Below are positions 1,528 to 51,135 of a stretch of 64,000 nucleotides of DNA, in pieces. Below the pieces are notes generated by a model. That model ran no database searches and had not been told where the DNA came from. It worked only from the letters and a program-made list of their open reading frames with translations. Position 1 is the stretch's first letter; each line of letters opens with the position of its first letter. The translations under genes and the position numbers were made by a program. The stretch is from a bacterium (GTDB taxonomy: Bacteria; Patescibacteriota; Minisyncoccia; Phycocordibacterales; UBA918): contig JAYSUD010000001.1 of assembly GCA_043719295.1 (NCBI GenBank), positions 97,700-161,699 on the forward strand, given 5' to 3'.

Positions 1528-1710
1528 AAACGGCACACTTCTTCGTTGTACTGCGCAAAATACTCCTCAATGTACTATGCGTACACCTCGTCATATTTTA
1601 CTTGTTTCCTACTGAAACTGTTTAGGTTATCGCTCTTTTTCCAAAAGAGTAGGCAACCTCTTGCGAAGTGACATTAAGTCACTTCTCACGCCTCGAATTG
1701 CACTCGTTTG
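1528..1710. repeat. Copy A of the dispersed ~100-bp intergenic element (GGCACACTTCTTCGTTGTACTGCGCAAAATA...CCTCGAATTGCACTCGTTT), carrying an extra ~85-bp internal insertion
   Basis: Near-identical to the copies at 42381, 44101, 52282, 56822 and 57574. Lies between the histidine kinase stop and the uvrA start. Confidence 0.7.
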
Positions 1711-4581: not shown

Positions 4582-4908
4582 ATGAACGTTCTTTCAACAA
4601 ATCGTGCTGATGCACTGTCGACAGCGTTTGGTGATGCAAAGAATAATCCACTTTCAGCAGTTTGTTGCATCAATCTCGATGTTACTTCAAGTCAAGAAGA
4701 GGTTACTTCAACCTTCACCAAAGTTTTTTTATCAAGATCAAAAAACAACCTGACTTTTGAGTGGTCCCAAAGAACACTCGCTGAAGGCATAAAGCTCTTT
4801 ATTAGGGAAAAGCAAATTCCAGATTTTGTCGCTCGGTTTATCGCCGGTGTCTCTATCGGGGAAATCGACCCAACGACAGTAGTTACCCAAACGAAGTCGC
4901 CGCCCTAA
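4582..4908 (+). CDS. Hypothetical protein
   Basis: 108-aa ORF between uvrA and uvrC, followed by a GC hairpin GTCGCCGCC...GGTGGCGAC. No recognisable motif. Confidence 0.35.
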   Translation: MNVLSTNRADALSTAFGDAKNNPLSAVCCINLDVTSSQEEVTSTFTKVFLSRSKNNLTFEWSQRTLAEGIKLFIREKQIPDFVARFIAGVSIGEIDPTTVVTQTKSPP

Positions 4909-9207: not shown

Positions 9208-9236
9208 TTGACTTATTGGTCCCAAATACGTATTAT
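9208..9236 (+). promoter_or_regulatory. Sigma-70-type promoter for tRNA-Ala
   Basis: TTGACT, 17 nt, TATTAT. The -10 element ends ~45 nt upstream of the tRNA 5' end; a leader hairpin CTCACC...GGTGAG (9241..9275) lies between. Confidence 0.5.
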
Positions 9237-9281: not shown

Positions 9282-9354
9282 GGGCCAATAGCTCATTTGG
9301 TAGAGCGCTTCACTTGCACTGAAGAGGCGGGGGGTTCGAATCCTCTTTGGTCCA
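9282..9354 (+). tRNA. tRNA-Ala (anticodon UGC)
   Basis: Manual cloverleaf fold. Acceptor GGGCCAA/TTGGTCC with the G3:U70 alanine identity pair. D-arm GCTC-ATTTGGTA-GAGC. Anticodon stem CTTCA/TGAAG with loop CTTGCAC. T-arm GGGGG-TTCGAAT-CCTCT (two G:U pairs). Discriminator A; CCA not encoded. Confidence 0.85.
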
Positions 9355-9421
9355 CAAACTGTAGGGCTCAAATGCGAATGCATTTGAGCCCTTTACAGTT
9401 TGCGACCAAAGAGGATTCGAA
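9335..9421. repeat. ~87-nt near-perfect palindrome whose left arm is the T-loop/acceptor 3' half of tRNA-Ala
   Basis: Left arm TTCGAATCCTCTTTGGTCCACAAACTGTAGGGCTCAAATGC; loop GAAT; right arm GCATTTGAGCCCTTTACAGTTTGCGACCAAAGAGGATTCGAA. About 38 bp of pairing with one small internal loop. Confidence 0.8.
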
Positions 9422-9564
9422 AGACGCAAGCCGGGGCCCCTCTGGGAGCGGCGGTAAAACAGTATCGGAATACTGTTTTACGGGTCGAGAGTACTTACTA
9501 GAATTGGAGCGAAGCGAACAATTATAGTTAAATAAAACTTTCTGGGAGATAGTTTTATCGTGAC

Positions 9565-9584
9565 CGATTCCTCTTTGGTCCACA
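9565..9584 (+). repeat. Direct repeat of the tRNA-Ala 3' end (candidate attR-like site)
   Basis: CGATTCCTCTTTGGTCCACA versus the tRNA 3' end CGAATCCTCTTTGGTCCACA (9337..9356): 19/20 identical, 228 bp apart. Region 9420..9730 is rich in GC hairpins (AAAACAGTAT-CGGA-ATACTGTTTT; GGGCTTC...GAAGCCC). Confidence 0.7.
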
Positions 9585-9805
9585 CCTTACTTCAAGTAAA
9601 AATATAAAACGATAGCCCTCAAAAGTGGGCTTCCTCAGAGGCCGAAGCCCTAATGCATTTATAATATTCTCAAGTAGATCGGAGTCAAGATATCGTACTG
9701 TGCTTAAATACCCAAAAACTCACCAATAACCGTGAAAAACTACAAAACTTCGTCTTTTTTCACGATTATCATTGACATAATCGTGAAAATTACTATAATA
9801 TTGAT

Positions 9806-10693
9806 ATGTCACGTATACCAAAAACGCATACTGCTATATTGTCGCTCCGTGAGCGGTTTTACAAAGCATTGCCTGGTAAAGAATCTTTACTCCAAATCAT
9901 TAATGAAATTGAAGTATCTGAGCATGTATACAACTCAAACGCCATAGAAAATAGTACGCTAACTTTAGAAGAAACTGAAAAAATTCTTCAGGAGATTGAT
10001 CTATCTCGATATGTGAGTGAAAGAGAATTATTTGAAGCAAAAAACTTAGCTCTGGTAATGAAGTATATAGAAAAGAAGGCTAAAGTGACTGATCCGTCAA
10101 AAGATGTGCTTCTCCTCCTTCATAAAATGTTGCTAGGTAATATTAAGGAAGATATTGCAGGTCGATTTCGGATGCCAACTGAATGGGTGAAAGTCGGAAA
10201 TTATATAGCTGCAAACCCAGCTGATGTCACAAAATTACTTGATTCGATGTTAATTTGCCTACAAACAAACAATCAGGAAAATATCATAAAACGAATTGCA
10301 GAACTTCATCTCACCTTTGAACACATTCACCCATTTTGCGACGGCAATGGTCGAATTGGACGAGTGCTCAACAACTTCATTTTGCTAAAAGAAGGGTATG
10401 TTCCAATTAATATCGCATTTGCTAATAGAGCTGATTATTATGCAGCGTTCAGAAAATTTGATGCTGATGGTGATGTAAGTCTGATGGAAGTAATTGTAGG
10501 TCGTGCATTAACAAACAGTTATCATAAACGACTTGCGTATCTTGAGGGTAAAAAAATTGTGACGTTAAATGAATTTGCAAAAAGCCACAAGCTCTCCATT
10601 TCGAATTTAATCAATAAAGCTCATCGCCAAACAGTTGAAGCTTTTATTGAAAAGGGTGTCTGGAAAATTGCTGATTCATACAAAGTAAAATAA
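9806..10693 (+). CDS. Fic family protein (AMPylation/adenylyltransferase domain)
   Basis: Canonical Fic motif HPFCDGNGRIGR (HxFx[DE]GNGRxxR). Confidence 0.85.
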   Translation: MSRIPKTHTAILSLRERFYKALPGKESLLQIINEIEVSEHVYNSNAIENSTLTLEETEKILQEIDLSRYVSERELFEAKNLALVMKYIEKKAKVTDPSKDVLLLLHKMLLGNIKEDIAGRFRMPTEWVKVGNYIAANPADVTKLLDSMLICLQTNNQENIIKRIAELHLTFEHIHPFCDGNGRIGRVLNNFILLKEGYVPINIAFANRADYYAAFRKFDADGDVSLMEVIVGRALTNSYHKRLAYLEGKKIVTLNEFAKSHKLSISNLINKAHRQTVEAFIEKGVWKIADSYKVK

Positions 10694-10722
10694 TCTTTAC
10701 CAACCTTGGTAGCTTCCATCAT

Positions 10723-11016
10723 ATGCCCCTCCAACAAACACTTATTTTCATCTTAATCCTCATAAACACTATCTCATTCTTTGTAGTAGCAAACGACAAA
10801 CGGAAGGCAATGCAGAGAGGTGACTCCGAACGCATCCCTGAAGGGCTAATCTTCTTCCTAGCTACTGCCTTCGGCAGTATTGGTGTATACGCCAGCATGC
10901 TCATATTCCGCCACAAAACCCGCAAATGGTACTTTCAGGTGGGTATTCCACTCCTAATTTTGCAAAATATAGCATTGCTGTATCTCATCAATGCTTATTT
11001 TGCATTGTATGTTTAG
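10723..11016 (+). CDS. DUF1294-like small membrane protein
   Basis: 97 aa, three TM segments. A paralogous C-terminal fragment lies at 12102..12266 (FGSIGVYASMLIFRHKTRKWYFQVGIPLLILQN). Confidence 0.55.
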   Translation: MPLQQTLIFILILINTISFFVVANDKRKAMQRGDSERIPEGLIFFLATAFGSIGVYASMLIFRHKTRKWYFQVGIPLLILQNIALLYLINAYFALYV

Positions 11017-11046
11017 TGATTATTTAACTGTAGTATACTGAGCATT

Positions 11047-12048
11047 ATGACTGATCATCCAAAAAACTCACAAATTGTAATTTACAAAACTCCTACTGGT
11101 GAGACTAAAATTGATGTCCGGTTTGATGGTGCTACTGTATGGCTCAGTCTTGAACAAATGGCTGAGTTATTCGGTAAAGCAAAATCAACTATAAACGAGC
11201 ATGTTCTCAATATTTTTACTGAAGGTGAGCTCAAAGAATCCTTAGTTTTACAGAAAATCGGAAATTCCGATTTTCTTGAAAAACCAACAAATTACTACAA
11301 TCTTGATGTCATTATTTCAGTTGGGTATAGGGTAAAGTCACTTCAAGGTACTAGATTTCGACAATGGGCGACAGAGAGACTTTCTGAGTATATTGTAAAA
11401 GGCTTTGTTATTGATAGTGAGCGATTAAAAAATCCAGATGTTCCCTTTGATTATTTCGAAGAATTAGAGCGAACAATTGCTGACATTCGTTCGAGTGAAA
11501 AGAGGTTTTATCGAAAGATAACTGATATTTATGCCACCAGCGTTGATTATGATCCAACTAATGACCATAGTCTACTTTTTTTTAAAACAGTACAAAATAA
11601 AGTTCACTTTGCTATAACTGGTAATACAGCTGCAGAAATCGTCGTCGACAGGATAGACGAGCAAAAACCAAATCTTGGTTTAACCTACACGAGAGGTGTA
11701 AAACCAACAAAAGAAGAAATTTCAATCGCAAAAAATTATTATTCGCAAGAAGAGTTGCTTCAACTCAATGCTTTAGTAGAACAATACTTAGTTTTCGCCA
11801 CAGAACAAGCTCGGCGACGGGTATCGATGACTATGCAGGATTGGATAGATAAATTACATGGTTTTCTGAATCTTAACGAACGGGACATTTTAACCGACGC
11901 TGGAAAAATCTCTCATGAAATGATGATTGAAATTACGAATGAAAAGTTTGATCATTATAAAACTAGACAATCAACTATAGATACTGAGTTTGATGATACA
12001 GTGCTTAAAGTACTAGAACAGATCGGTAAAGATGCTTCAAGTAAATAA
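11047..12048 (+). CDS. Virulence-protein RhuM family protein (COG3943/DinD-like)
   Basis: N-terminal RhuM signature: IVIYKTPTGETKIDVRFDGATVWLSLEQMAELFGK...NEHVLNIFTEGEL...NLDVIISVGYRVKSLQGTRFRQWATERL. Confidence 0.8.
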   Translation: MTDHPKNSQIVIYKTPTGETKIDVRFDGATVWLSLEQMAELFGKAKSTINEHVLNIFTEGELKESLVLQKIGNSDFLEKPTNYYNLDVIISVGYRVKSLQGTRFRQWATERLSEYIVKGFVIDSERLKNPDVPFDYFEELERTIADIRSSEKRFYRKITDIYATSVDYDPTNDHSLLFFKTVQNKVHFAITGNTAAEIVVDRIDEQKPNLGLTYTRGVKPTKEEISIAKNYYSQEELLQLNALVEQYLVFATEQARRRVSMTMQDWIDKLHGFLNLNERDILTDAGKISHEMMIEITNEKFDHYKTRQSTIDTEFDDTVLKVLEQIGKDASSK

Positions 12049-12101
12049 CAAGACAAACGCATATCTACATCCCCCAGCAGCCTAAAACGCACCTAGACAC
12101 A

Positions 12102-12266
12102 CCATTCTTCATGGCCGCCGCCTTCGGCGCCATAGGTGTCTACACCGCCATACTCTTCTTCCGCCACAAAACAAGAAAGTGGTACTTTCAAATAGGGATT
12201 CCGCTCCTTATTATCCAGAACTTAGCCGCCGCCTACACCACATGGCAATTTGTCTTTATAAATTGA
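12102..12266 (+). pseudogene. GC-rich fragment (C-terminal ~55 codons) of a second DUF1294 gene
   Basis: Translation PFFMAAAFGAIGVYTAILFFRHKTRKWYFQIGIPLLIIQNLAAAYTTWQFVFIN* aligns to the C-terminus of the 10723..11016 protein. No plausible N-terminus. Codons are strongly GC3-rich (gccgccgccttcggcgcc), unlike the AT-rich host. Confidence 0.6.
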
Positions 12267-12298
12267 GAAAACAGGGCTTAAGTGCTACTCTTTAAGTA

Positions 12299-14686
12299 AT
12301 GAATCTCTACGAAACGCTCCAGCTTGCCAAAAGTGAGGAAGATGTGAAAGATGCGTACATAAAAGCGCTTGGGCTTAAGACTTTTTCTAAAGGTCTTATT
12401 GATATTCAAACAAAAGAAATTTGGTTTGAAGCAAAAGATAAAAGCAACACTACTACATACAAGATGCTCACGCAGCTCTTGCACTATGTGAAGCAATGGA
12501 TGGAACACGGTGAAGAGATTCCGCCATTTTTGTGTGCGATTGATACCGAAAAAGCAGCAATCATGAAAACTGCAGACGCACTGCCACTGTTTGAACGGAA
12601 GGACATCAAGTGGGGAAAGTCTGCAAGTGACGTTACTCCTGAAGCGCTTGAGGCTGTCTCAACATTTATTGGTACACGTTTTGTCTCCTACCGCATCGCA
12701 ACCCACGAACAGGAGTTTATTGATGCAGTAAAAACAGCAATTAAAAACGGCGACATCATCCGTACTGAAATCAAACCAGCAAACATCAAGTCTGTTTTCG
12801 ACAAGTGGGTAGACATGATTGGAAAAGAGATTGGTGACGTTGCGCCAGAGAAGTACGCACTCCTTTTCTTTGCCGACATCATGCATGACGGCACAGTTTC
12901 AACACATAAAGACCTTCCTGCAGAACTCTTGTACAAAGACGGACAACCTGTGTTTCTTCTTGAGGGTAAACTCTATGAACTTGGGAACAAAGAAGGGTAC
13001 CGTCAGTTCTGGGCAATCTACCATAAACCACCACGAGAAGAGCACCGAAACGCAATGCTCGAACGACGTGACACACTCATTCCGTACGACGAACGGAGTT
13101 TTAAAGGTGCCTACTACACCCCACTTCACGTAGTGGATAAAGCGTACGACAAACTCACTGAAACGCTGGGTGACAATTGGCAAGATGAGTACATTGTGTG
13201 GGATATGTGTTGCGGAGTGGGGAACCTCGAAGTTAAACACTCAAACCACCGTAACCTTTACATGTCGACACTCGACCAAGCAGACATCGACGTAATGAAA
13301 GCAACAAAAACCTGCGCAGCTGCAGAACGTTTTCAATATGACTATTTAAATGATGATATTACTGACGATGGAAAGATTGACTACTCACTTACAAATAAAG
13401 TTCCTGCGGGACTTCGCAAAGCAATAGCCGATGGCAAGAAAATTCTAGTGCTCATAAACCCACCATATGCGGAAGCTGGTGAGGGTATTGGAGAAGGAAA
13501 TAAAGAAAAAGTTGCTAAGACAAAGTTCTCAGCTACTGCAATGGAAAACTGGGGGAAAGCAAGTAATGAATTATTTACGCAATTCGTAGCTCGCATTTCA
13601 CAAGAAATACCAACTGCAACTCTCGCAATGTTCAGTAAATTAAAATATGTTAATGCACCTAATTTTGAAAAATTTAGACAAGCATGGAATTCGGAATACT
13701 TAGATGGATTTATTGTCCATAGTAAAGCATTTGATGGTCTAAAAGGACTATTTCCAATTGGTTTCCTTATCTGGAAAACATATCCTGATTCAAAAGATAA
13801 ATTCGAAATAACTGAAGTTACAACTGATGTTTTAGATAAATATGCTTTACCAATTGGAGCAAAGAAATTCTATAATTTACCCAATGACGCTTTTTTAAAC
13901 AAGTGGTTAGATAGACCAAAACCAAACACTACAGAAGTAGTACCTTTAAAAAACACAGTGTCAGTATCAACTGCTCAAAACACTGTAACTCTTTCAAAAT
14001 GGTCAGATGGGGCAGTTGGGTATTTTTTCTGTGACAGCAATGACTTCCAAAATGCAGCACAGTCAACAGTATTACTTTCTTCTACATATTTTAAAGGGCA
14101 TGGCTTTTATATAACTGAAGATAACTTATGGCAGTCATCGATAATCTTTTCAGTGCGTCGCTTAATTAAACCAACTTGGCAAAACGATCGTGATCAATTC
14201 TTACAACCAACAGGTGAGCTCACTGACGAATTCAAAAATGATTGTCTTATATGGATACTATTTAATGGAAGTAACTTAACAGCAAGTGCAAATGACCTTG
14301 AATGGAACGACAAAAAGTGGTCAATTGTAAATCATTTTATTCCGTACACTGAAAGTGAAGTTGGAGCGCCAGGACGTTTTGAAAGTGACTTTATGGTGGG
14401 GTACATGAAAGACAAAGTGTTTTCAGAGAAAGCACAGGCGGTACTCGCAGATGGGAAGAAGCTTTGGAGTGCATACTTTGAACACACCGACCCACACACC
14501 GTCCGCGAAGAACTCAAGCTCAACCGCCCCGACGTCGGCTGGTACCAAATCCGCAACGCGCTGAAGCGCCGCAACGAAAGTGGCGACTACAACCCCATCT
14601 CATTCACCGAGTTTGAAACCACCTACAAACTCCTCACCGAAAAACTCCGTCCCCAAGTGTATAGTCTTGGTTTCCTAAAAGAATAA
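12299..14686 (+). CDS. Type IIG/IIL restriction-modification enzyme, MmeI-like (fused PD-(D/E)xK endonuclease, N6-adenine methyltransferase and target-recognition domain)
   Basis: N-terminal nuclease motif IDIQTKEIWFEAKDK (D...ExK). gamma-class N6-MTase motifs FKGAYYTPLHVVD (motif I/X region) and LINPPY (motif IV, NPPY). 795 aa, a single polypeptide with no separate S or R gene. Confidence 0.7.
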   Translation: MNLYETLQLAKSEEDVKDAYIKALGLKTFSKGLIDIQTKEIWFEAKDKSNTTTYKMLTQLLHYVKQWMEHGEEIPPFLCAIDTEKAAIMKTADALPLFERKDIKWGKSASDVTPEALEAVSTFIGTRFVSYRIATHEQEFIDAVKTAIKNGDIIRTEIKPANIKSVFDKWVDMIGKEIGDVAPEKYALLFFADIMHDGTVSTHKDLPAELLYKDGQPVFLLEGKLYELGNKEGYRQFWAIYHKPPREEHRNAMLERRDTLIPYDERSFKGAYYTPLHVVDKAYDKLTETLGDNWQDEYIVWDMCCGVGNLEVKHSNHRNLYMSTLDQADIDVMKATKTCAAAERFQYDYLNDDITDDGKIDYSLTNKVPAGLRKAIADGKKILVLINPPYAEAGEGIGEGNKEKVAKTKFSATAMENWGKASNELFTQFVARISQEIPTATLAMFSKLKYVNAPNFEKFRQAWNSEYLDGFIVHSKAFDGLKGLFPIGFLIWKTYPDSKDKFEITEVTTDVLDKYALPIGAKKFYNLPNDAFLNKWLDRPKPNTTEVVPLKNTVSVSTAQNTVTLSKWSDGAVGYFFCDSNDFQNAAQSTVLLSSTYFKGHGFYITEDNLWQSSIIFSVRRLIKPTWQNDRDQFLQPTGELTDEFKNDCLIWILFNGSNLTASANDLEWNDKKWSIVNHFIPYTESEVGAPGRFESDFMVGYMKDKVFSEKAQAVLADGKKLWSAYFEHTDPHTVREELKLNRPDVGWYQIRNALKRRNESGDYNPISFTEFETTYKLLTEKLRPQVYSLGFLKE

Positions 14687-14726
14687 CTTAGTTGACTGCA
14701 AAAATACTAGGCGTATATTATAGAAG

Positions 14727-15053
14727 ATGACAATCTCAAAAAATACACCTCTAAAAGGACAGTTTCGACATATTGTATTTAAAGACAAAGGTGTTTGGTA
14801 TGCAGTTGCACTTGAATTTAATATTGTCGAATCTAGTGATGATCCACGATTGGCGTACTTCAACCTACTACAAGCTGTTGACGGGTATATTGCTGCTATG
14901 CGGAAAATTAAGGGTGCTCGTAATTTCTCGCCCCTCAATCAGCCACCAGCGAAAGAGTACCAAGAGCTGTGGAATCAATTGAATTCTAATAAACCAGTAA
15001 AATCACCTTATCAAGTAAACTCTTTTGGAGTTTCTTCAACTACACATGCCTAA
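14727..15053 (+). CDS. hicB: HicB-like antitoxin (UPF0150/DUF1902 RNase H-like fold)
   Basis: 108 aa; VWYAVALEFNIVESSDDPRLAYFNLLQAVDGYIAA resembles the HicB N-domain. Overlaps the HicA gene immediately downstream. Confidence 0.45.
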   Translation: MTISKNTPLKGQFRHIVFKDKGVWYAVALEFNIVESSDDPRLAYFNLLQAVDGYIAAMRKIKGARNFSPLNQPPAKEYQELWNQLNSNKPVKSPYQVNSFGVSSTTHA

Positions 15054-15273
15054 GAAGTTGCATAATTGGAAGTTTAGAGAGGTTGAGCGTTTTTTAAAGA
15101 ATAATGACTTTGTACTCCATCACACAAATGGTAGTCATTACTATTACATTGGCAACAGTGAGCATCTTGTATGCGTTCCATATCACGGAAGTATTGCAAT
15201 TAAAACACGCACTATGAAAGGAGTAATCACACAATCAGGTATTTCACAAAATGATTGGCTAAAAGATACGTAA
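15046..15273 (+). CDS. hicA: HicA family mRNA interferase toxin
   Basis: MPKKLHNWKFREVERFLKNNDFVLHHTNGSHYYY: YcfA/HicA fold with the GSH motif. Start taken at MPKK; the listed ORF has an 8-codon upstream extension. Confidence 0.65.
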   Translation: MPKKLHNWKFREVERFLKNNDFVLHHTNGSHYYYIGNSEHLVCVPYHGSIAIKTRTMKGVITQSGISQNDWLKDT

Positions 15274-15405
15274 ACTGTACACTTTAAATATAGCTAATAA
15301 GGAAACTCGCAATGCATTTGTTGTAGGAATGTCAGAAGATGACGCAATTGCTCAGATTTCAATGAGTAAGTAGCTTATTTCTGTAAACTTACTGAACTTT
15401 GAAAT

Positions 15406-15446
15406 AATAAATCCCCTAAGTTTATGCTTCTAGGGGATTTATTTGT
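15406..15446. terminator. Bidirectional intrinsic terminator
   Basis: AAATAAATCCCCTAAG-loop-CTAGGGGATTTATTTG, a perfect stem flanked by A/T runs, between the hicA 3' end (+) and the small minus-strand gene. Confidence 0.6.
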
Positions 15447-15447
15447 T

Positions 15448-15570
15448 TTACTTCTTATCTCGTCTCTGTCGAAGAGCAGAAGCAGCTGCTGTTTTTGAGT
15501 TCTTACCAGTACTACCACTTTTCAGTACTTTTGAAGCAGCTTTACCGGCTTTCTTTGATGTTTTTGCCAT
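15448..15570 (-). CDS. Small basic 40-aa protein (unannotated short ORF)
   Basis: MAKTSKKAGKAASKVLKSGSTGKNSKTAAASALRQRRDKK; ATG 15568..15570, TAA 15448..15450. Terminator hairpin immediately 3'. Below the ORF-track size cut-off. Confidence 0.35.
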   Translation of the reverse strand: MAKTSKKAGKAASKVLKSGSTGKNSKTAAASALRQRRDKK

Positions 15571-15705
15571 TGTTTAAACACACGTTTACATCAGTCGACT
15601 TCCACCTTATGTGGCCTGATATTTTCATTATATCACACGCTGACAAGTTAACACTATACACAGTAAACTTGTAAAGATTCAAAAAAAGAGTAGTATACTG
15701 TTCTT

Positions 15706-16431
15706 ATGACTACTTGGATACAAAACAAACGTCAATCAGTAGGTTTATCTCAAACTGAAGTTGCAGAAAGTTTGGGTATTTCTCGACCGACGTATATAAA
15801 ACTTGAACGGGGGATTGCTGAACCTACAGAACACCAGAAGGCAATTCTTGCGAGTCTTTTTGATGTATCACGGGAGACTGTGACAAAAAAATCACTAGAG
15901 ACAGTGGGAGTTTCAAATGCAGTCTATGTAAAGGAAGTGCCTAAGGAGAACGTACAAAAGTTTGAGCAGGTATTACTCTATATAGTGAGTAAAGTGGGAA
16001 GTCGCCCAAATATTGGTCAGACTGCACTCTATAAACTGCTGTATTTTATTGATTTTGATTATTACGAAAAGTATCAGGAATATTTGATTGGCGCTGTGTA
16101 CATTAAAAACACTCATGGTCCAAGTCCTGTGTCGTTTGCTAAGATTGCGCGTAACCTAGAGACGTCGGGGAAACTTGTGTTGGTGCAGAGTAAATACTTT
16201 GGATTTGACCAGAAAAAGTATCTAGTAACCAGCGATACGGTAGTTTCTTATTTAAGTGCGCAGGAGCTTAAACATATTGACGATGAACTAGAACGACTTG
16301 CTTCAAAAAGCGCAAAGGAGCTTTCTGACCTATCACACATTGATACTCCATGGCGTGTTGCAAAGGAAAAGCAAGTTTTAAATTATCGTCATGCATTCTA
16401 TCGACCCGATGAAACTTCTGTAGTTGAATAA
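15706..16431 (+). CDS. XRE-family HTH / Panacea (DUF4065, SocA-like) domain antitoxin
   Basis: N-terminal HTH QSVGLSQTEVAESLGISRPTYIKLERG. C-terminal DUF4065-like core GQTALYKLLYFIDFDYYEKYQEYLIGAVYIKNTHGPSPVSF. Confidence 0.65.
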   Translation: MTTWIQNKRQSVGLSQTEVAESLGISRPTYIKLERGIAEPTEHQKAILASLFDVSRETVTKKSLETVGVSNAVYVKEVPKENVQKFEQVLLYIVSKVGSRPNIGQTALYKLLYFIDFDYYEKYQEYLIGAVYIKNTHGPSPVSFAKIARNLETSGKLVLVQSKYFGFDQKKYLVTSDTVVSYLSAQELKHIDDELERLASKSAKELSDLSHIDTPWRVAKEKQVLNYRHAFYRPDETSVVE

Positions 16432-16777
16432 ATTGTCTATGAGTATGTTTTCAGTGTTGCCAGAATTTGAGAAAGAATTAAAAAAGCTTTCAAAAAAATA
16501 TCCAACATTGCCTTCTGATATTGAAGACATTAAACCTATCCTTGAAGAGACTAAAACAGGAATTGGAAAAAATTTTACGATTATTGCAACTGCTAAAGAT
16601 GTTCAGATTGTAAAAGTGCGAATTTTGTGTGAATCACTCCGCTCAAGAACAGTGCGACTTATCTACGCGTACCATAAAAACAAAATTGAGTTTATGTATA
16701 TCGAGATATATTTTAAAGGTGATACAGAGAATGAAGATAAATCTAGAATTAAAGAATATTTAGAAGGACTCAGTTAG
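16424..16777 (+). CDS. RelE/ParE-superfamily-like toxin (putative partner of the Panacea antitoxin)
   Basis: Overlaps the upstream gene by 8 nt. FEKELKKLSKKYPTLPSDIEDI...RTVRLIYAYHKNKIEFMYIEIYFKGD resembles the RelE/StbE pattern F.K.LKKL...YRiIY...I.Il.Ig.R.D. Confidence 0.45.
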   Translation: MNKLSMSMFSVLPEFEKELKKLSKKYPTLPSDIEDIKPILEETKTGIGKNFTIIATAKDVQIVKVRILCESLRSRTVRLIYAYHKNKIEFMYIEIYFKGDTENEDKSRIKEYLEGLS

Positions 16778-16850
16778 AATGCAACAAATCAACTGCTAAA
16801 ATATAATATACAGGTCTAGTCTCTCTAAGTGTGAAGAAAATAACATAAAA

Positions 16851-17381
16851 CTATTTTTTCACCCCAACAAACTCGTTCAGCATTGCTAAGTATTGATCGG
16901 TGACTTTTTTAGGGATTTTAGGGTGAGTAAATGGTTTGATTACTCCTTTGTTCTTAATGATGGTGTCTACTTGATCAAAATAGAACCCCTGTGGTGTAGC
17001 GATAAATAATGCAGCGTTACGCCATGAACGTTCTATCTCTTTTGCTATTGCGTTCACTTTGCCGTTGGTACGAGTAGCCATGTACTTTATTTCTACAAGT
17101 GTCACATTGTGATTTTCTTCATTTACAATGGCATAGTCGGGAGCTTTACGAACAATCTCTATCATTGCCCGAGCGTCTGCACTTTGTTTCGCTTTTGCAA
17201 GTTGATGTACTACTTTTTCATACCCAAATTCTAGAACGGTATATCCTTTAGTGTTGTGAATCATTTGTTCAAATATAATTTCTGCAATTTTCCCCTTAAT
17301 AAGCTCGTGTGTAAATTTTATGTTGTTCATATACGGTAAGTATACTCCCGACTTCAGACTGGTAATGATACGAATCCCCAC
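16851..17381 (-). CDS. Hypothetical small PD-(D/E)xK nuclease-like protein
   Basis: Ordered motifs E(F)GYE ... APDYAIV ... LVEIKY (PD-x12-ExK). Divergently arranged from the RhuM-Doc gene. An alternative start MNNIKF at 17330 is possible. Confidence 0.4.
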   Translation of the reverse strand: MGIRIITSLKSGVYLPYMNNIKFTHELIKGKIAEIIFEQMIHNTKGYTVLEFGYEKVVHQLAKAKQSADARAMIEIVRKAPDYAIVNEENHNVTLVEIKYMATRTNGKVNAIAKEIERSWRNAALFIATPQGFYFDQVDTIIKNKGVIKPFTHPKIPKKVTDQYLAMLNEFVGVKK

Positions 17382-17406
17382 GTCCTTATCGTGCTACCAT
17401 TAACTC

Positions 17407-18414
17407 ATGATAAAAAAATCTACCAAAACCGAATTGGTTATTTTTAAGGGAAGTAAGGGGCAGGTTAAGCTTCGAGGAGATTTTCATAATGATACGTTGT
17501 GGGCGACACAAGCCGAGATTGCTGAATTATTCGATGTGGATGTTCGAACAATAAATGAGCACCTCAAGAATATCTACCGTACTGAAGAACTGTCAAAAAA
17601 AGCAACTATCCGGAATTTCCGGATAGTTAAAACAGAAGGAAATCGAAACGTCGAGCGTGATGTTTTTCACTATAATTTGGATGCAATAATTTCAACTGGA
17701 TATCGTGTAAATAGCAAAAAAGCTACTCAATTCCGCCAATGGGCAACAAATGTTGTAAAGTTACATATTACTGATGGCTTCACCATCAACAAAAGCCGTA
17801 TCGCCACCAACTATGAGGACTTTATGAAGGCAGTTACCCTTGTAAAGAATCTTGCTCCAAAGAGGAGTAATGTCGATACAGAATCGGTTCTTGAACTTGT
17901 ACAGCTTTTTGCTGACACGTGGTTCTCCCTTGATGCGTATGATAAAGAAGCGCTTGCTCCGGGAAAGGTTAATAAAAAGAAAGTTAAACTGACTTCTGTA
18001 GAATTCTTGGAAAATGTGACTGTACTCAAAGGCGAGCTCATACGAAAAGGAGAAGCTACAGAAAACTTTGCTTTAGAACGCAATCGTGAAGCAGTTGAGG
18101 GTATTATCGGTAACGTGATGCAGAGCTTTGGTGGGAAAGAAGTGTACCCGACAATAGAAGAGAAAGCGGCACACTTGATGTACTTTATCATCAAGAATCA
18201 TCCGTTTGTTGATGGTAACAAACGTACGGGTGCCTATGCATTAGTCTGGTTCTTGCAAAAGATGAAAGTGCTTGATATACATCGTCTATCGCCAACTGCA
18301 CTTACGGCACTCACACTCCTTGTAGCGGAAAGTAATCCAAAAGACAAAGAAAAAGTGGTAGCACTTGTGGTCTTACTGATAGCAGGACCAATACAGAAAA
18401 ATCGGAAGAAGTAA
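17407..18414 (+). CDS. RhuM N-terminal domain fused to a C-terminal Doc/Fic toxin domain
   Basis: N-terminal LWATQAEIAELFDVDVRTINEHLKNIYRTEEL...NLDAIISTGYRVNSKKATQFRQWATN aligns to the RhuM at 11047. C-terminal HPFVDGNKRTG matches the Doc motif HxFx(D/N)GNKR. Confidence 0.75.
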   Translation: MIKKSTKTELVIFKGSKGQVKLRGDFHNDTLWATQAEIAELFDVDVRTINEHLKNIYRTEELSKKATIRNFRIVKTEGNRNVERDVFHYNLDAIISTGYRVNSKKATQFRQWATNVVKLHITDGFTINKSRIATNYEDFMKAVTLVKNLAPKRSNVDTESVLELVQLFADTWFSLDAYDKEALAPGKVNKKKVKLTSVEFLENVTVLKGELIRKGEATENFALERNREAVEGIIGNVMQSFGGKEVYPTIEEKAAHLMYFIIKNHPFVDGNKRTGAYALVWFLQKMKVLDIHRLSPTALTALTLLVAESNPKDKEKVVALVVLLIAGPIQKNRKK

Positions 18415-18415
18415 C

Positions 18416-19027
18416 ATGTTCCCAAAAAGCTCAAATGAATACAAACTACTTTCTAAACTCAATACACCTCAAAAGGTGCAGACTTTCTTGGAATCTATTC
18501 CCTTTAACCATGAGGAAAATGGGATGACGTGCAGGTCGGGGTATCTCGCTTTAAAAGAGAATAAGGCACACTGTATCGAAGGAGCGTTTATTGGAGCTTT
18601 TGCATTACACTTGCAAGGCAGAGATGCAACACTTGTGAGTTTAAAAGTGAAGAAACCTGATGATGATCACGTTATTGTACTTTTTAAAGAAAACGGTTTC
18701 TACGGAGCGTTAAGCAAAACAAACCACCCCGTGCTTCGCTATCGCGATCCTGTGTACAAAACAGTTCGTGAACTCGTTATGTCGTACTTTCATGAGTATT
18801 TTTTATATACAAATGGAAAGAAAACACTTCAAGGCTACACTAAGCCCATTAACTTAAAGCGCTATGGCACAAAATGGATAACAGGAGAAGAAGATGTGTG
18901 GGAGATTGGAAACGATATTTATAATCTACCAATAATCACCATCGTTCCTGACGCAAACAAACACCTCCTTCGTAACGCAACTCAATTTGAACGTACTTCA
19001 CTTGATGTGCAAGAGTGGAAGCAATAA
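18416..19027 (+). CDS. Hypothetical protein co-transcribed with the RhuM-Doc gene (Cys/His/Asp, papain-like or transglutaminase-like?)
   Basis: ATG 2 nt after the Doc gene stop. Conserved-looking order GMTCRSGYLAL ... DDDHVIVLF ... D, compatible with a Cys-His-Asp triad. Fold is unassigned. Confidence 0.4.
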   Translation: MFPKSSNEYKLLSKLNTPQKVQTFLESIPFNHEENGMTCRSGYLALKENKAHCIEGAFIGAFALHLQGRDATLVSLKVKKPDDDHVIVLFKENGFYGALSKTNHPVLRYRDPVYKTVRELVMSYFHEYFLYTNGKKTLQGYTKPINLKRYGTKWITGEEDVWEIGNDIYNLPIITIVPDANKHLLRNATQFERTSLDVQEWKQ

Positions 19028-19154
19028 AGCAAGGTAGTATCTTTTAAATTTCATTTTCAGTATCTGGTTTAAGTTCAGAAAATCAGTTTTATTATACTTG
19101 TGTCAAAATTGTATCAATGCTTTAATTCCTGTTGGTTCAAAACAGGGGACTCCA

Positions 19155-19622
19155 ATGTTTGAGACATTCATCGACTTCTCGGTAAACGGTAGAGACTATA
19201 GTGATTGGGTCTTGTTGGTTAATCGCCTTGCTATCGGGTTGTTCTGTGCAATTTCGTGTTTTCACAAGCTCTTTGTCAAAGAAAGACAAGAACAACTTGT
19301 GCAAACACTTATCGCGTGCAAGATACCTTTTGTGAGTTTTTGCAGATGGTTTGTGCCACTGGTTGAGTTCTTTGGTGGTTTAGCTGTAATTTCTGGTGTT
19401 CTCGCACCACTTGCAGCACTTGGACTACTGATAATTTTCTTGGTCGCTTTGTATACTGAAGGACCCAAGAGAATTAAGGAGTTCAAACCCATCAACGCTG
19501 CTGACTACTTGGATGATGTTCTCTATTTGTCTGAAACAACGTACGTGGTGATGGCATTGTTCGTTATGTTCATTGGTACGGGGAAGTACACCTTTATGTG
19601 GGTTGTTATACTCCTTTTCTAA
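19155..19622 (+). CDS. DoxX family membrane protein
   Basis: Four TM helices, with DoxX-like segments LLVNRLAIGLFCAISCFHKLF and LVEFFGGLAVISGVLAPLAALGLLIIFLVALY. Start taken at MFETF. Confidence 0.55.
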   Translation: MFETFIDFSVNGRDYSDWVLLVNRLAIGLFCAISCFHKLFVKERQEQLVQTLIACKIPFVSFCRWFVPLVEFFGGLAVISGVLAPLAALGLLIIFLVALYTEGPKRIKEFKPINAADYLDDVLYLSETTYVVMALFVMFIGTGKYTFMWVVILLF

Positions 19623-19651
19623 CCAGTTTTGTTATTTATAGGTAGTGATGT

Positions 19652-19682
19652 GTGCTCCTGCAATTTGGCAGGAGCATTTTTG
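19652..19682 (+). terminator. Intrinsic terminator
   Basis: TGCTCCTGC-AATTTG-GCAGGAGCA followed by TTTTT. Confidence 0.6.
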
Positions 19683-19770
19683 ATATTTAATGTATAGATA
19701 TACACAGATCTCAACTTTATGTGTTATCAAAAAGTACATTTGTACTTGTTTGTACGTGATACCATTAAGT

Positions 19771-20331
19771 ATGGTAAAAAAAGCTACTACACAAAAGAGT
19801 GTTTTAAAAGAATTAAACGGGCAATTGAAGACGTTGCAAACTGCTCTTGTTACTGCAAATAAACTCGAAGGGAAAGATGACTACTTGCAGGTTTCTGTTA
19901 AAAAGAACCAAGCTCGTTTTGAACGGATTAAGAAGAAAGGTGTTGAGGACAAAGCAGTGGGGAAGTTTTTTATACAAATTGATGTCACCTCAAAGGCAGA
20001 GACTATTTTCATCCCAACATCAATTGCGTCAGGTAAAAAACCAACGGGTTTTATCTACCAAATTGAAGGAACCGCAAAGGGAGCTATTTCCAACGCAAGC
20101 GTAAGTTGTAGGGGCGAAGATGTGACACAGGTTACCGTTGGCACGTTAATTTATTCTAAAATACCGAAAGGGAAGACTGCGTCTTTTAAAATTCAAGTAG
20201 AAATAAGTGGAAATTTTGCTAAAACATACAAAATTATCATCAACAGAATCAACTATAAACTTGCAGTAAACGACGCCCGCTACAAGCAATACCTCAAAGA
20301 GATTGCTTCTGACAGTGTTACGTTTTCTTAG
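19771..20331 (+). CDS. Hypothetical secreted protein
   Basis: Start at MVKKATTQKS; no recognisable motif. Confidence 0.35.
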   Translation: MVKKATTQKSVLKELNGQLKTLQTALVTANKLEGKDDYLQVSVKKNQARFERIKKKGVEDKAVGKFFIQIDVTSKAETIFIPTSIASGKKPTGFIYQIEGTAKGAISNASVSCRGEDVTQVTVGTLIYSKIPKGKTASFKIQVEISGNFAKTYKIIINRINYKLAVNDARYKQYLKEIASDSVTFS

Positions 20332-35899: not shown

Positions 35900-36559
35900 G
35901 TTTGAAACTCAGTCCGAGGTCGGACCTCGTACTGAGTTCGTCAATCAAACGATAATCTTAGTTCCTTAATGATCTCAACAATTTCTGACATGTCATTATA
36001 GGTCATGTTATCCGAGGTCCAACCTCGGATTATGTCTGATTCTTGGTTTAATTTACTTCTATACAATTTTGAATCTGAGATATTGTGTATTTGAAAGTTA
36101 TTTGTAACATAAGAAACGACTTGTCTTAGGTCTTGGTCACTTGGAATGTATTTTGATTTAAATTTACCCTGGAATAACACTCCTGAGCGTTTGTACTTTT
36201 TATTGAAATACATTGTATAACCAACTCCGACGCGTTTCATGAAATATGAAATGCCATTTTCGACTAATTCTTTTAAAACTAAATGATAATGATTTGGTAA
36301 TATGCAATATGAAACTATCTCGACAACTTTCTCGTCGCTCATATCAGCTGGATATAGATGAAGCTTCCCTCGTATTATCTTTGAATTGTATGCTCTAAGT
36401 GAGCTTAAAAAATAACTGTAGTCTTGAGGGTCGTTGAAAATAACCCTCTTCTCAGTACCTCTGTTGTAGCAGTGATAGTACTCATCAATTTCAAACGCAT
36501 GGTTTCTGCTTGCCATATAGTAAATATACAATAAGTCCGAGGTCGGATCTCGGACTTAT
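35900..36559. mobile_element. RAYT-REP unit: IS200/IS605-like HuH Y1 transposase gene flanked by REP-like palindromes
   Basis: 3' flank GTTTGAAACTCAGT-CCGAGGTCGGACCTCG-TACTGAGTT (35900..35938). 5' flank ATAAGTCCGAG-GTCGGAT-CTCGGACTTAT (36531..36559). A third CCGAGGTCCAACCTCGG hairpin lies inside the coding region at 36006..36030. Confidence 0.7.
35941..36516 (-). CDS. REP-associated tyrosine transposase (RAYT; IS200-like TnpA, HuH Y1 family)
   Basis: HuH motif ILPNHYHLVL. YTMYFNKKYKRSGVLFQGKFKSKYIPSDQDLRQVVSYVTNN aligns with TnpA_REP-type YVRYINRKYGRTGHLWEGRYKS...Y-I-NP. Start taken at ATG 36514; the listed ORF starts at a TTG. Confidence 0.7.
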   Translation of the reverse strand: MASRNHAFEIDEYYHCYNRGTEKRVIFNDPQDYSYFLSSLRAYNSKIIRGKLHLYPADMSDEKVVEIVSYCILPNHYHLVLKELVENGISYFMKRVGVGYTMYFNKKYKRSGVLFQGKFKSKYIPSDQDLRQVVSYVTNNFQIHNISDSKLYRSKLNQESDIIRGWTSDNMTYNDMSEIVEIIKELRLSFD

Positions 36560-48324: not shown

Positions 48325-51135
48325 ATGCATAAAAAATTTGATAATAAGGAGATTGAAGCTCGATGGCAGGAGATCTGGAAAGAAAGTGGTATCTATGATG
48401 TGGGAGAACGCGATACCAAAAAAGAGAAGGAATATATCCTTGTTGAGTGGCCATACCCCTCTGGTAACCTCCATATTGGTCACTGGCATGCGTTTGCAGT
48501 GCCTGACATCTATGCGCGCTTCCGCCGCATGAACGGGGTGCAAGTACTCTATCCAATGGGTTTTGACGCATTTGGGCTTCCTGCTGAGAACGCTGCAATC
48601 AAAAGAAATACAAGTCCAAAAGAATGGACAGAAGGCAATATTGTGTTTATGCGCAACCAGCTTAACAGTATGGGTGCCTCATTCTCGTGGGACAAAACAA
48701 CAAGTTCAACAGACCCAAGTTACTACAAATGGACACAGTGGATGTTTACCGAATTCTTTAAGAAAGATATTGCCTACCGTGGTAAGGGAATTGTAAATTG
48801 GTGCCCTGGATGCAATACCGTTATCGCAAATGAGCAGGTTCTTGCCGATGGAACCTGCGAACGTTCAGGAGACATGATTGAGAAGAAAGAAATGCCTCAG
48901 TGGATGTTACGGATTACGCAATATGCAGACAGACTTATTGATGACCTTGATGGACTCAATTGGCCAGAGCAAATTAAAGACGCACAACGAAACTGGATAG
49001 GGCGGTCACAAGGTGCAGAACTAACCTTTAAAATTTCAACAGGAGACGAAGTAACAGTCTTCACAACAAGACCCGACACACTCTATGGAGCTACCTACCT
49101 TGTCCTTGCCCCGGAACACCCCCTCATAGAAAAGGTATGGGGTGGGACCTCGAACAATGAAGAGATTGGAGTCTATGTGCATGCTTCAAAACAAAAGGCG
49201 GAGCAAGATAGACTTGATGCAACCAAAGAGAAGACAGGGGTGAAACTTGAGGGGATTACTGCGATTAACCCAGCATCAGGGGAAGAAATCCCGGTCTATA
49301 TTGCAGACTACGTACTTGGAGGATATGGAACAGGAGCAATTATGGCAGTACCAGCGCACGACGAACGAGATTTTGCATTTGCTACAAAGTTTGGACTACC
49401 GATAACACAAGTTGTACGTAAGGTATTTGGAACACCACTTTCGAATCCTGTGACAAGAAAAGCAGTAGGTTCGATAGTACATAATCCAAAAACAAATTTA
49501 TATTTAATTCAGCATAGTCACGAATTTAAAAATCATTCTTTCATATTCGGAGGTCTTGAAGCAAACGAAACGTATGAAGAAGCGGCAATTCGTGAGACAA
49601 AAGAAGAGACCGGATACGACACGAAGTTCGTTAAGTTTATAACTCAAGAAACCGAAGCACATTTTTATCACCCTGGAAAAAATGAAAATAGGACACTCAC
49701 TAGTCGACGAGTACTCTTAGAACTTGTTTCTGATGCTTCGTCTACTGTTGGTGTAGAAGAACTTAAAAAACAAGAACCGGTTTGGTTGACCTATGATGAA
49801 ATTTGTAAAAAATTCACTATAGAAGAAGATCTGTACGCAATTGCACAACTTCGTGAATCAAAACTATACACAGGAGTAGGAACACTCTATAACTCAGGAG
49901 AATTTGATGGGATGGATTCAGAAGAAGCTAAAGAAAAAATTGTTGCTAAGGTTGGAGGGAAGATGACTAATACGTATCGACTTCGTGACTGGTCTATTGG
50001 ACGTCAGCGATACTGGGGCGTACCAATTCCAATTGTGTATGACCCGCAAGGTGTTGCACATCCTGTCCCAAAAGAACACTTACCTTGGTTGTTGCCTGAG
50101 GATGTTGATTTTAGACCTACAGGTGTTGCTCCTCTTACAAAAAGTGAAGAGCTCAAAAAGAGAACAGTAGAAATCTTTGGAGAAGGATGGACACCTGAAG
50201 TTGAAACTATGGATACGTTTGTAGATTCCTCATGGTACTTTTTGCGCTACTTAGACAACCAAAACAATGGTGAACTTTCCTCGTCTATGAAACAAAAAGA
50301 ATGGATGCCTGTTGACATCTACTTTGGAGGCGCTGAACACACAACAATGCACCTTCTCTATTCACGTTTCTGGCAGAAAGCGCTATTTGACCTCGGTTTA
50401 GTTCAAGATAGCGAACCATACAAGAAGCGCATCAATCGTGGGCTCATCTTGGGCCCTGACGGTAACAAGATGAGTAAGAGTAAAGGGAACGTTATTGATC
50501 CTGATGATCACGTTAAAACAGTGGGTGCTGATTGTGTAAAAATGTACCTCTCGTTTATGGGGCCATACGGAGAGACAGCAAACTATCCATGGGATATGGG
50601 AGGTATTGTTGGTGTCCGCCGATTCCTCGAGCGTGTATACGGACTTGATACGCATATCACAGAATCTGAGAGTGAAGAAGTAACGCGTCAACTCCACAAA
50701 ACTATCTCGAAGTTAGAGAACGATGTCCCACTCTATAAATTCAACACCGCGATAAGTGCGATGATGATTTATATTAATCTTGTTGAAAAAGACGGATTAA
50801 CACTTGAATCGTATCTAGTATTCTTGCGTCTACTTGCGCCATTTGCTCCACACCTTACAGAAGAACTGTGGGCCATTCAAGGTAAAATAACTTCAATTCA
50901 TCTTGAATCGTATCCAAAATCAAATCCACTTTATGTTGTAGATACAAAGGTGACTATTGCTGTCCAAGTTAATGGAAAAATGCGTGGAAGTATTGTTGTG
51001 CAAAAAGATGCAGATGAATCTTTTATCTTGAATAGAGCTACAGAAACAGAAACGATAGCAAAATACCTCACAAACGGAGTTACGCGACACATTTACGTCC
51101 CAAACAAAATTATCAACATTATGACTAACGTATAA
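48325..51135 (+). CDS. leuS: Leucyl-tRNA synthetase with an inserted Nudix hydrolase domain
   Basis: HIGH: YPSGNLHIGHWHAF. Editing-domain markers TTRPDTLYGATYLVLAPEHP and GTGAIMAVPAHDERDFAFATKFGLPI. KMSKS: KMSKSKGN. Residues ~365-515 hold the Nudix box GGLEANETYEEAAIRETKEETGY. Confidence 0.9.
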   Translation: MHKKFDNKEIEARWQEIWKESGIYDVGERDTKKEKEYILVEWPYPSGNLHIGHWHAFAVPDIYARFRRMNGVQVLYPMGFDAFGLPAENAAIKRNTSPKEWTEGNIVFMRNQLNSMGASFSWDKTTSSTDPSYYKWTQWMFTEFFKKDIAYRGKGIVNWCPGCNTVIANEQVLADGTCERSGDMIEKKEMPQWMLRITQYADRLIDDLDGLNWPEQIKDAQRNWIGRSQGAELTFKISTGDEVTVFTTRPDTLYGATYLVLAPEHPLIEKVWGGTSNNEEIGVYVHASKQKAEQDRLDATKEKTGVKLEGITAINPASGEEIPVYIADYVLGGYGTGAIMAVPAHDERDFAFATKFGLPITQVVRKVFGTPLSNPVTRKAVGSIVHNPKTNLYLIQHSHEFKNHSFIFGGLEANETYEEAAIRETKEETGYDTKFVKFITQETEAHFYHPGKNENRTLTSRRVLLELVSDASSTVGVEELKKQEPVWLTYDEICKKFTIEEDLYAIAQLRESKLYTGVGTLYNSGEFDGMDSEEAKEKIVAKVGGKMTNTYRLRDWSIGRQRYWGVPIPIVYDPQGVAHPVPKEHLPWLLPEDVDFRPTGVAPLTKSEELKKRTVEIFGEGWTPEVETMDTFVDSSWYFLRYLDNQNNGELSSSMKQKEWMPVDIYFGGAEHTTMHLLYSRFWQKALFDLGLVQDSEPYKKRINRGLILGPDGNKMSKSKGNVIDPDDHVKTVGADCVKMYLSFMGPYGETANYPWDMGGIVGVRRFLERVYGLDTHITESESEEVTRQLHKTISKLENDVPLYKFNTAISAMMIYINLVEKDGLTLESYLVFLRLLAPFAPHLTEELWAIQGKITSIHLESYPKSNPLYVVDTKVTIAVQVNGKMRGSIVVQKDADESFILNRATETETIAKYLTNGVTRHIYVPNKIINIMTNV

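Follow-up and report, generated by a model that had tools for sequence, protein, structure and literature searches.

The 64-kb stretch of DNA analysed here (hereafter the window) carries a gene for tRNA-Ala(UGC) whose 3' tail, from the T-loop onwards, is repeated twice in the DNA that follows, once inverted and once in direct orientation (Table 1). The segment 9335-9584, which holds these copies and a structured core between them, is the subject of this report. On balance, and with reservations, we take it to be a member of a family of non-coding insertion modules, small (~130-230 nt) and non-autonomous, that lie at the 3' ends of tRNA genes in Pacebacteria-like bacteria of the Candidate Phyla Radiation (CPR). 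As far as Rfam and the literature searched are concerned, this family is previously undescribed. The homologues of the Ddl protein encoded upstream of the tRNA bear Pacebacteria names, which identifies the host as a CPR/Patescibacteria genome.

Table 1. Features at and around the tRNA-Ala(UGC) locus (coordinates are window positions)
Feature	Coordinates	Strand	Basis and details
tRNA-Ala(UGC)	9282..9354	+	ARAGORN; Rfam RF00005, 64.7 bits
T-loop; T-stem 3' strand; acceptor 3' strand; discriminator A	9335-9341; 9342-9346; 9347-9353; 9354		parts of tRNA-Ala(UGC)
Promoter-like site of the tRNA gene, TTGACT-17-TATTAT	9208..9236	+	consensus scan
Tail copy 1, CGAATCCTCTTTGGTCCACA	9337..9356	+	repeat search; from T-loop C56 to 2 nt beyond the discriminator
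Trailer and long hairpin	9357..9401	+	arms 9363-9375/9380-9392, loop GAAT, 13/13 match
Inverted tail copy	9402..9421	+	inverted-repeat search; GACCAAAGAGGATTCGAA at 9404-9421
Class I structured core	9422..9564	+	motifs common to L073, L075, L077, L086, L088, L089, L092, L103, L157 and L195
Class I core motifs	9428-9434; 9482-9489 and 9559-9565; 9494-9500		AAGCCGG; GGGTCGAG paired with CGTGACC; CTTACTA
Class I core hairpin	9498-9506/9519-9527		loop holds the GCGAAGC mini-hairpin, 9509-9515
Two extra lineage-specific hairpins in the core	9454-9481; 9532-9558
Tail copy 2, CGATTCCTCTTTGGTCCACA, module-closing direct repeat	9565..9584	+	19/20 against copy 1
Variable lineage-specific region (context, outside the module)	~9585..20330		Pfam
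Possible degenerate orphan class II core	1604..1662	-	model R1, 28.7 bits, rough E = 2e-4, model positions 38-108 only

The tRNA gene itself is ordinary. As the earlier note on this DNA had stated from sequence alone, it folds into a normal cloverleaf. It has a G3:U70 pair and an unencoded CCA end, and ARAGORN places its end at 9354/5. Tail copy 1 is a portion of this functional tRNA. A search of the 64 kb with the tail 20-mer at up to three mismatches returned exactly three copies, two direct and one inverted, against 0.00 expected, and the tail 15-mer gave two matches against 0.09 expected. The third, direct copy of the earlier note was recovered with the same identity. The inverted pairing of 9335-9352 with 9404-9421 is complete (18/18); base for base, the inverted tail is the Watson-Crick partner of tRNA positions 54-71, with an A facing U70 where the tRNA has G3, and 11 of 12 pairs with the tRNA 3' strand are Watson-Crick. 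Together with the fully matched arms of the long hairpin, this makes 9335-9421 a 38-bp hairpin with a predicted folding energy of -63 kcal/mol as RNA and -43 kcal/mol as DNA, which bears out the stem of about this length in the earlier note. The hairpin at 9363-9392, whose centre AAATGCGAATGCATTT is common to the window and the related locus L163, occupies the position of the intrinsic terminator in relatives; its T-run is weak, so the terminator scan made no call. The description of the DNA between the direct copies as GC-rich and dense in hairpins also holds: GC content is 45% over 9357-9564 and 58% over 9422-9492 against 34% in flanking intergenic DNA, and a 12-bp hairpin (9454-9481) and a GGGGCCCC run are present. 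The unit 9400-9586 has a predicted fold of -66.1 kcal/mol (z = -4.5). An independent assembly, L001, which covers the window from 9501 onwards and thus spans the direct tail copy and not the palindrome, is identical in sequence.

To place this arrangement among its relatives, we used contigs encoding Ddl homologues (denoted by L numbers), which include 28 tRNA-Ala(UGC) loci syntenic with ddl. At least one module is present at 18 of these 28 loci. At 14 of the 28, the 12-mer of the locus's own tRNA that covers the T-stem and the acceptor 3' strand occurs again with at most one mismatch 130-220 nt downstream, for which we estimate a chance of ~0.003 per locus from the 12-mer frequency in 1.3 kb; four further loci have a recognisable core without the tail repeat. 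About a third of the related loci (L085, L091, L100, L102 and L104) carry a plain terminator alone. Where modules occur, the order of segments is fixed: the tRNA tail; a trailer with a GC hairpin and T-run; the complement of the acceptor 3' strand; an optional small hairpin; the complement of the T-stem and T-loop; the structured core; and the direct tail copy. The hairpin segments of L195 and L087 were scored as intrinsic terminators on the + strand, and the terminators that follow direct tails have GNRA or UUCG loops. Left parts, whether of the long-palindrome or of the terminator-plus-hairpin type, combine freely with either of the two core classes described below.

Tail sequences vary among lineages (TTGGTCC, CGAGTCC, CTGGTCC, ACGGTCC, AAGGTCC and others), with the same variation in the inverted and in the direct copies. 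Across eight different tail 12-mers, the inverted copy pairs at 10.35 of 12 positions with its own tRNA and at 6.93 of 12 with the tRNAs of other lineages. Of 17 curated modules, 15 have an inverted copy that covers the acceptor, and an A stands opposite U70 in all of these; inverted copies show no G.U at sites where the tRNA has G.U. The inverted copy is thus an exact complement of the tRNA 3' strand and not a duplicate of the tRNA 5' half. The two T-stem copies of L159, inverted and direct, agree with one another (ATGGA/TCCAT) but differ from the tRNA.

The cores fall into two classes. Class I comprises the window module and those of the relatives named in Table 1, which share the motifs AAGCCGG, GAGGCGG, GGTCGAG paired with CGTGACC, and CTTAGTA on the flank of a hairpin with a C-GAA-G or C-GTA-G mini-hairpin in its loop. 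The window module is a class I member of the tRNA-tail insertion family: 9337-9584 contains all five module segments in order together with the class I motifs and can be aligned with 12 other class I members. Folded separately by minimum free energy, 13 of 13 class I members form a three-way junction, and their short helices change in a compensatory manner (GCC/GGC, GAC/GTC and CGGC/GCCG; GGTC/GACC versus GTCC/GGAC). The class I structure is based on separate folds because the variable hairpins misalign in MAFFT and defeat RNAalifold. Class II has a different junction and an invariant GTA triloop. For this class, a structure-blind MAFFT alignment analysed with RNAalifold showed compensatory changes at 24 of 30 pairs, and the covariance model built from that alignment (R1) had 22 matches in 1.0 Mb. 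Among 21 distinct class II sequences in the model-fitted alignment, the paired cells amount to 92.2%, as compared with 66.9% in shuffles (none of 500 reached the observed value) and 36-44% with slid partners. On the + strand, class II stems contain 17 G.T and 6 A.C oppositions, an excess that points to the + strand as the folding strand. A permissive Rfam search of the window and six relatives returned only tRNAs and miRNA-like hairpin artefacts and matched neither core class; for 9357-9564, part of a segment that the earlier note had proposed to compare with Rfam, there is no family at E<=10, and the look-alikes of miRNA hairpins lie on the palindrome only.

Comparison of loci points to modules that move. 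L075 equals L157 plus a clean 158-nt insertion, made up of a terminator, an inverted T-loop and a class II core and bounded by a 22-nt tail repeat; the Ddl proteins of the two are 66.5% identical and their common class I segment is 77% identical over ~190 nt. Modules, terminator parts included, are far more similar in nucleotide sequence than the neighbouring ddl genes (91 versus 69% for L089/L092, 88 versus 64% for L195/L089 and 90 versus 68% for L077/L079), a pattern that suggests horizontal spread. Arrays vary in number, order and class even where the tRNA is the same (II; II+I; I+II and more; I-cargo-I). L163 has a tRNA identical to that of the window and a near-identical palindrome centre, yet two class II cores replace the class I core. 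Modules are also known beyond tRNA-Ala(UGC). On one contig, the class I cores after tRNA-Ala(UGC) and tRNA-Ala(GGC) are 82% identical, and the inverted arm of either unit matches its own tRNA, that of the GGC unit at 19 of 19 positions. After tRNA-Pro(CGG), a class II core is 85% identical to a tRNA-Ala-linked core and has a 21-nt direct repeat, and tRNA-Arg(CCG) is followed by a class I module. The tails match each of these four tRNAs, and modules were seen only beside tRNA genes, bar one weak orphan match. As judged from such comparisons, module mobility appears well supported.

Several other arrangements were observed at the relatives' loci. Two arrays contain open reading frames (ORFs) as cargo, one for a 176-aa P-loop kinase-like protein (L089, tRNA +1..+790) and one for an 84-aa protein (L092, tRNA +212..+790), and the two inserts share a 60-nt end composed of a hairpin and a degenerate tail (AATCGACGCAAAGTCCAC). 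The variable region of L159 includes, at 4706-4906, a tRNA-Pro(CGG) followed by a class II module of its own, between a 362-aa ORF and a GmrSD gene, which suggests that tRNA-plus-module units can themselves be brought into the hotspot. In L075, the segment 12084-12268, 5' of the intact tRNA-Ala, consists of a copy of the first 24 nt of the tRNA, a hairpin and a class II core (47.9 bits), and ends with an anticodon-loop-like CTTGCAC followed by its own complement; from its sequence, it looks like a module tied to another part of the tRNA inside a decayed duplicate gene. In L140, from a distant taxon, a 13-nt copy of the 3' end of tRNA-Ser(GGA) (CTCTCGCCTCCGC) occurs 158 nt downstream (148-400); it has no inverted copy and no core of either class beside it, and may be an unrelated small insertion. 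Nine Logan contigs of one lineage from nine sequencing runs (L186-L194) all end in the upstream gene, in the tRNA-Ala or a short way past it, probably at a branch point that co-occurring strains create through their identical tRNA and common module sequences. The possible orphan core on the - strand of the window, a weak match to the inner part of the class II core, has no adjoining tRNA; it lies between uvrA and a histidine kinase gene and could be a module in decay.

A module of this kind might be inserted into the T-loop near C56/R57 as a segment comprising a replacement tail, a terminator hairpin, an inverted tail and a three-way-junction core (of class I in the window). Because the module would carry a replacement tail, the tRNA would stay intact, and the original tail would be displaced to form the direct repeat 3' of the core. 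New modules would enter beside the tRNA body and push older ones downstream, giving tandem arrays with decaying distal repeats; the degenerate or missing distal repeats that are often found in arrays would be expected from this order of entry. The + strand would fold as a single strand, either RNA or single-stranded DNA, in which the inverted and direct tails could rebuild a perfect duplex of the 3' part of the tRNA gene. Such a duplex could be used by an enzyme acting in trans. One candidate would be a tyrosine recombinase acting as at CTX-phage attP or integron attC; another would be a Y1/HUH transposase, in the manner of the miniature elements of insertion sequences (IS) of the IS200/IS605 group, with the inverted tail as the stem of the end hairpin. 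By its sequence, the junction at C56/R57 would be compatible with IS200/IS605-type insertion 3' of a fixed short target. Alternatively, natural transformation followed by recombination between homologous sequences, namely the 73 identical nt of the tRNA and the 20-nt repeat, would require no enzyme of this kind and could explain the high module identity. GNA triloops, found in the core hairpins as GTA and C-GAA-G, are especially stable in DNA. These core loops as opposed to the GNRA/UUCG loops of the terminators, the Watson-Crick-perfect inverted copy and the absence of a promoter make us lean toward a role at the DNA level.

Several observations weigh against the interpretation as insertion modules. 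No mobilising enzyme has been identified: Pfam scans of the window's ORFs between 1.8 and 62 kb detected no integrase, as the earlier note had already remarked, and a search of 1.09 Mb of related loci with the tyrosine-recombinase box II pattern gave nothing relevant and no match near modules. The one Y1 transposase gene of the window is associated with palindromes (AGTCCGAGGTCGGAYCTCGGACT) unlike the modules. No excised form, no polymorphism of empty and occupied sites within a population and no viral or plasmid carrier was seen. Scans of viral contigs with the tail 20-mer and the class I and class II motifs gave zero matches or chance matches in coding DNA, and a scan of the species representatives of GTDB with a 17-mer of the tail gave 70 matches, all of them by chance or in the tRNA-Val of other taxa, the tail occurring in no representative. 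Four contigs of one lineage from different samples carry an identical two-module array. Retargeting to another tRNA would need a change in both tail copies, and we know of no recombination mechanism that simply explains how both are re-matched. The incoming and the old repeat copy are indistinguishable from sequence. Covariation in class I was judged from the separate folds and by eye, the class II pairing counts are those of a model-fitted alignment, and the strong sequence conservation of junctions and loops is also what a functional RNA might show. The literature searched, whose coverage is incomplete, contains no account of such elements, which falls short of proving them new.

The strongest of the alternatives, which we nevertheless judge unlikely, is that the inverted tail, core and direct tail together constitute a structured non-coding RNA gene framed by tRNA sequence, in two classes and with mobility only secondary. 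Its closing helix would copy the stack of the tRNA acceptor and T-arm, each copy would have its own terminator, and arrays would arise by unequal crossing-over of the 20-nt tails. The covarying stems with their conserved junction and loop nucleotides, the + strand sense indicated by the excess of G.T over A.C, the good fold of the unit, the RNA-type terminator after every direct tail and the mutual match of the two T-stem copies at L159 would all suit such a gene. However, promoter scans of the window, L195 and L087 found none ahead of the modules once the tRNA terminator is passed; the site TTGACT-17-TATTAT, a motif kept upstream of the relatives' tRNA-Ala, is the only sigma-70-like site 5' of the window module. 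The 5' strand of the presumed helix is the exact complement of its 3' strand (A3:U70), so it is neither a tRNA duplicate nor a substrate of alanyl-tRNA synthetase. A closing helix is impossible in the GGC unit of L086 and in L088B, L157 and L075u2, which combine a perfect inverted tail with a lost direct tail. The identity of 88-91% across lineages extends to the terminator parts, no Rfam family matches, and the GNA triloops of the core are of a kind especially stable in DNA.

Less probable still is a vertically inherited structure for processing or terminating the tRNA-Ala transcript, in which the hairpin sequesters the 3' tail and nothing moves. This would account for the position of the hairpin at the relatives' terminator site and for the widespread occurrence of the layout at the same locus. 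It is difficult to reconcile with the related loci that have a plain terminator only, with the variation in module copy number and order, with modules at other tRNAs, with a module identity far above that of flanking genes and with the clean 158-nt indel between relatives. In addition, a 38-bp hairpin competing with the tRNA fold would be harmful if co-transcribed.

The earlier note had proposed that the repeats are attL and attR, or the scar, of an island borne by an integrase, with the Fic/RhuM, restriction-modification and toxin-antitoxin genes to the right as its cargo. Classical tRNA att repeats of T-loop-class integrases span the T-loop to the 3' end, as this repeat does, and the downstream region is a variable hotspot. 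Insertion targeted to a tRNA therefore stands as the part of that proposal supported by the repeat footprint and by insertions in relatives (L075 versus L157). The integrase-borne island does not: the repeats bracket 208 bp and exclude the island, no further tail copy lies at its far edge even at 3-4 mismatches, and neither the Pfam scans of the window nor the box II search of related loci yielded an integrase. The same palindrome and repeat stand at the tRNA-Ala of relatives whatever lies 3' of them, with no island in L157, a restriction-modification island in L163 and housekeeping-type genes in L195; this is the outcome that the earlier note had named as speaking against its own proposal. 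Since the layout persists regardless of the downstream genes, the 208-bp segment is no scar in decay but part of a structured family that is conserved and covaries. Nor is the palindrome a recombinase core site, as had been supposed, but a terminator hairpin plus an inverted tail, a regular part of the module. The island reading is thus largely refuted, and we consider it very improbable.

Other identities were tried and rejected. A transfer-messenger RNA (tmRNA) or other alanine-accepting mimic is excluded by A3:U70, by the lack of a tag frame conserved among members and by a negative ARAGORN result; a retrovirus-style primer-binding site, by an inverted copy that complements the genomic trailer and not the CCA end; and a casposon or a miniature element with terminal inverted repeats, by the ends of the inserted segment, which are not mutual inverted repeats. 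A riboswitch was rejected because no consistent gene follows and the next gene is convergent in L195, and a promoter in the class I hairpin because the hexamers are spaced 13 nt apart and form the hairpin stem.

The modules resemble several known systems without coinciding with any. With the tRNA att sites of tyrosine integrases (T-loop sublocation) they share the direct repeat from the T-loop to the 3' end, the intact proximal copy and the hotspot of foreign genes. They differ in their length of 130-230 nt without an integrase or any gene, in the added inverted tail, in a conserved covarying fold with the same core at four tRNAs, and in repeats that do not bracket the island. The cis-mobilisable elements (CIMEs) and accretion arrays found beside integrative and conjugative elements such as ICESt1/ICESt3 of Streptococcus thermophilus are decayed elements of kilobase size. 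Like the modules, CIMEs are non-autonomous, flanked by att sites, arranged in tandem at one site and presumed to be mobilised in trans; unlike them, they have no conserved single-strand fold or inverted att copy, and the modules have no known partner element. Integron attC sites and the attP(+) site of CTX phage are similar in that a stem rebuilds a double-stranded target, in their variable structured tip, in an extra hairpin on one strand, in a single active strand and in tandem arrays, at times of tiny or ORF-less cassettes. The module stem, in contrast to attC, reads GTTCGAA/GTTCAAG, with C where the GTTRRRY of the R''/R' pair (RYYYAAC/GTTRRRY) needs R, and its base is acceptor sequence. 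No IntI or attI is adjacent, the upstream genes being ddl, a pterin dehydratase gene and a gene for a protein of unknown family. The repeat is also ~20 nt instead of 7, folding of the module as single-stranded DNA is inferred, and no link to IntI or Xer was found.

Palindrome-associated transposable elements (PATEs) of the IS200/IS605 group, and the hairpin pairs of repetitive extragenic palindromic (REP) sequences (REPINs) with their REP-associated tyrosine transposases (RAYTs), are likewise small, rich in hairpins and non-coding, and also strand-specific and dependent on mobilisation in trans. A further likeness to IS200/IS605 would be insertion on the 3' side of a short motif (GTTC of the T-loop in this case), which would leave the target unduplicated provided that the left end brings the tail, and a Y1 gene is present in the window. 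This IS200-like Y1 (HUH) transposase gene lies on the minus strand at 35941-36531 (PF01797, E = 3e-8), directly after the ATP synthase epsilon gene, in a RAYT/REP-like arrangement; three copies of its 23-nt palindrome flank and lie within it (35906-36559). No further copy of that palindrome exists in the 64-kb window, in the module or in 200 fetched loci; within the 64 kb read, the palindromes of the Y1 gene differ from the modules, and no cleavage motifs of IS200/IS605 type were identified in modules. Finally, tmRNA, the Y RNA YrlA and viral tRNA-like structures are comparable in a closing helix with the sequence of the acceptor/T-arm stack and, as to location, beside a tRNA. The modules differ from these tRNA-like RNAs in lacking a T-loop and a promoter, in having A:U instead of G:U at 3:70 and in being negative with ARAGORN and Rfam.

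To our knowledge, tRNA genes are classic landing sites of foreign DNA whose known occupants are kilobase-sized and bring their own integrase. The occupant in the window is a gene-less element of ~200 nt with an inverted copy of its target, and its family has two conserved folds and tails for four tRNAs. CPR bacteria have tiny genomes and few known mobile elements. If the modules are mobilised in trans, they would constitute a new minimal substrate for site-specific insertion and could point to an unrecognised recombinase or transposase activity in these bacteria. A fuller proposal, possible and offered only tentatively, is that they represent a new class of CPR mobile element: a gene-less fold of ~150 nt, as DNA or RNA, which would carry a copy of the last 20 nt of its target together with the complement as a re-writable T-loop address, would be inserted by an enzyme from elsewhere without harm to the tRNA, would have its tails re-templated for each target and would seed a hotspot of defence genes. 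If they are RNAs instead, they would be two new structured classes tied to tRNA genes. Either way, the modules mark, and may organise, a defence-gene hotspot, for which covariance models of the two classes would provide a practical marker in metagenomes.

The genes 5' of the tRNA, by Pfam, are uvrA, uvrC, a UDP-glucose dehydrogenase fragment, ddl, a pterin dehydratase gene and a gene for a small protein of unknown family. A 238-aa protein encoded upstream has no identical database record, probably owing to a different choice of start codon. To the right lies a hotspot that differs in each relative. The conserved right flank, which encodes two small proteins, Transgly_assoc, a HAD hydrolase and the ATP synthase operon, follows the tRNA and very different inserts in L157, L159 and L163. 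In the window it begins at 20497 (tblastn), which delimits the window-specific island to ~9585-20330. This Fic/RhuM island is a separate acquisition within the same hotspot. Its genes encode Fic, DUF1294, RhuM, a 795-aa protein of unknown family, HicA, HTH-SocA, a RhuM-Fic fusion and DoxX. Between 9806 and 20331, there are two Fic-related genes, one of them joining the N-terminus of RhuM to a Fic domain (17407-18414), as well as a full RhuM gene, a HicA toxin, an HTH-SocA (Panacea) antitoxin and the 795-aa protein, which is Pfam-negative (12299-14686). Relatives have other defence genes at the same spot, namely type I/IIG restriction-modification in L163 and GmrSD in L159. Elsewhere in the window, the gene at 48325-51135 encodes a leucyl-tRNA synthetase with a NUDIX domain (residues 377-500) directly after the editing domain, an unusual fusion.

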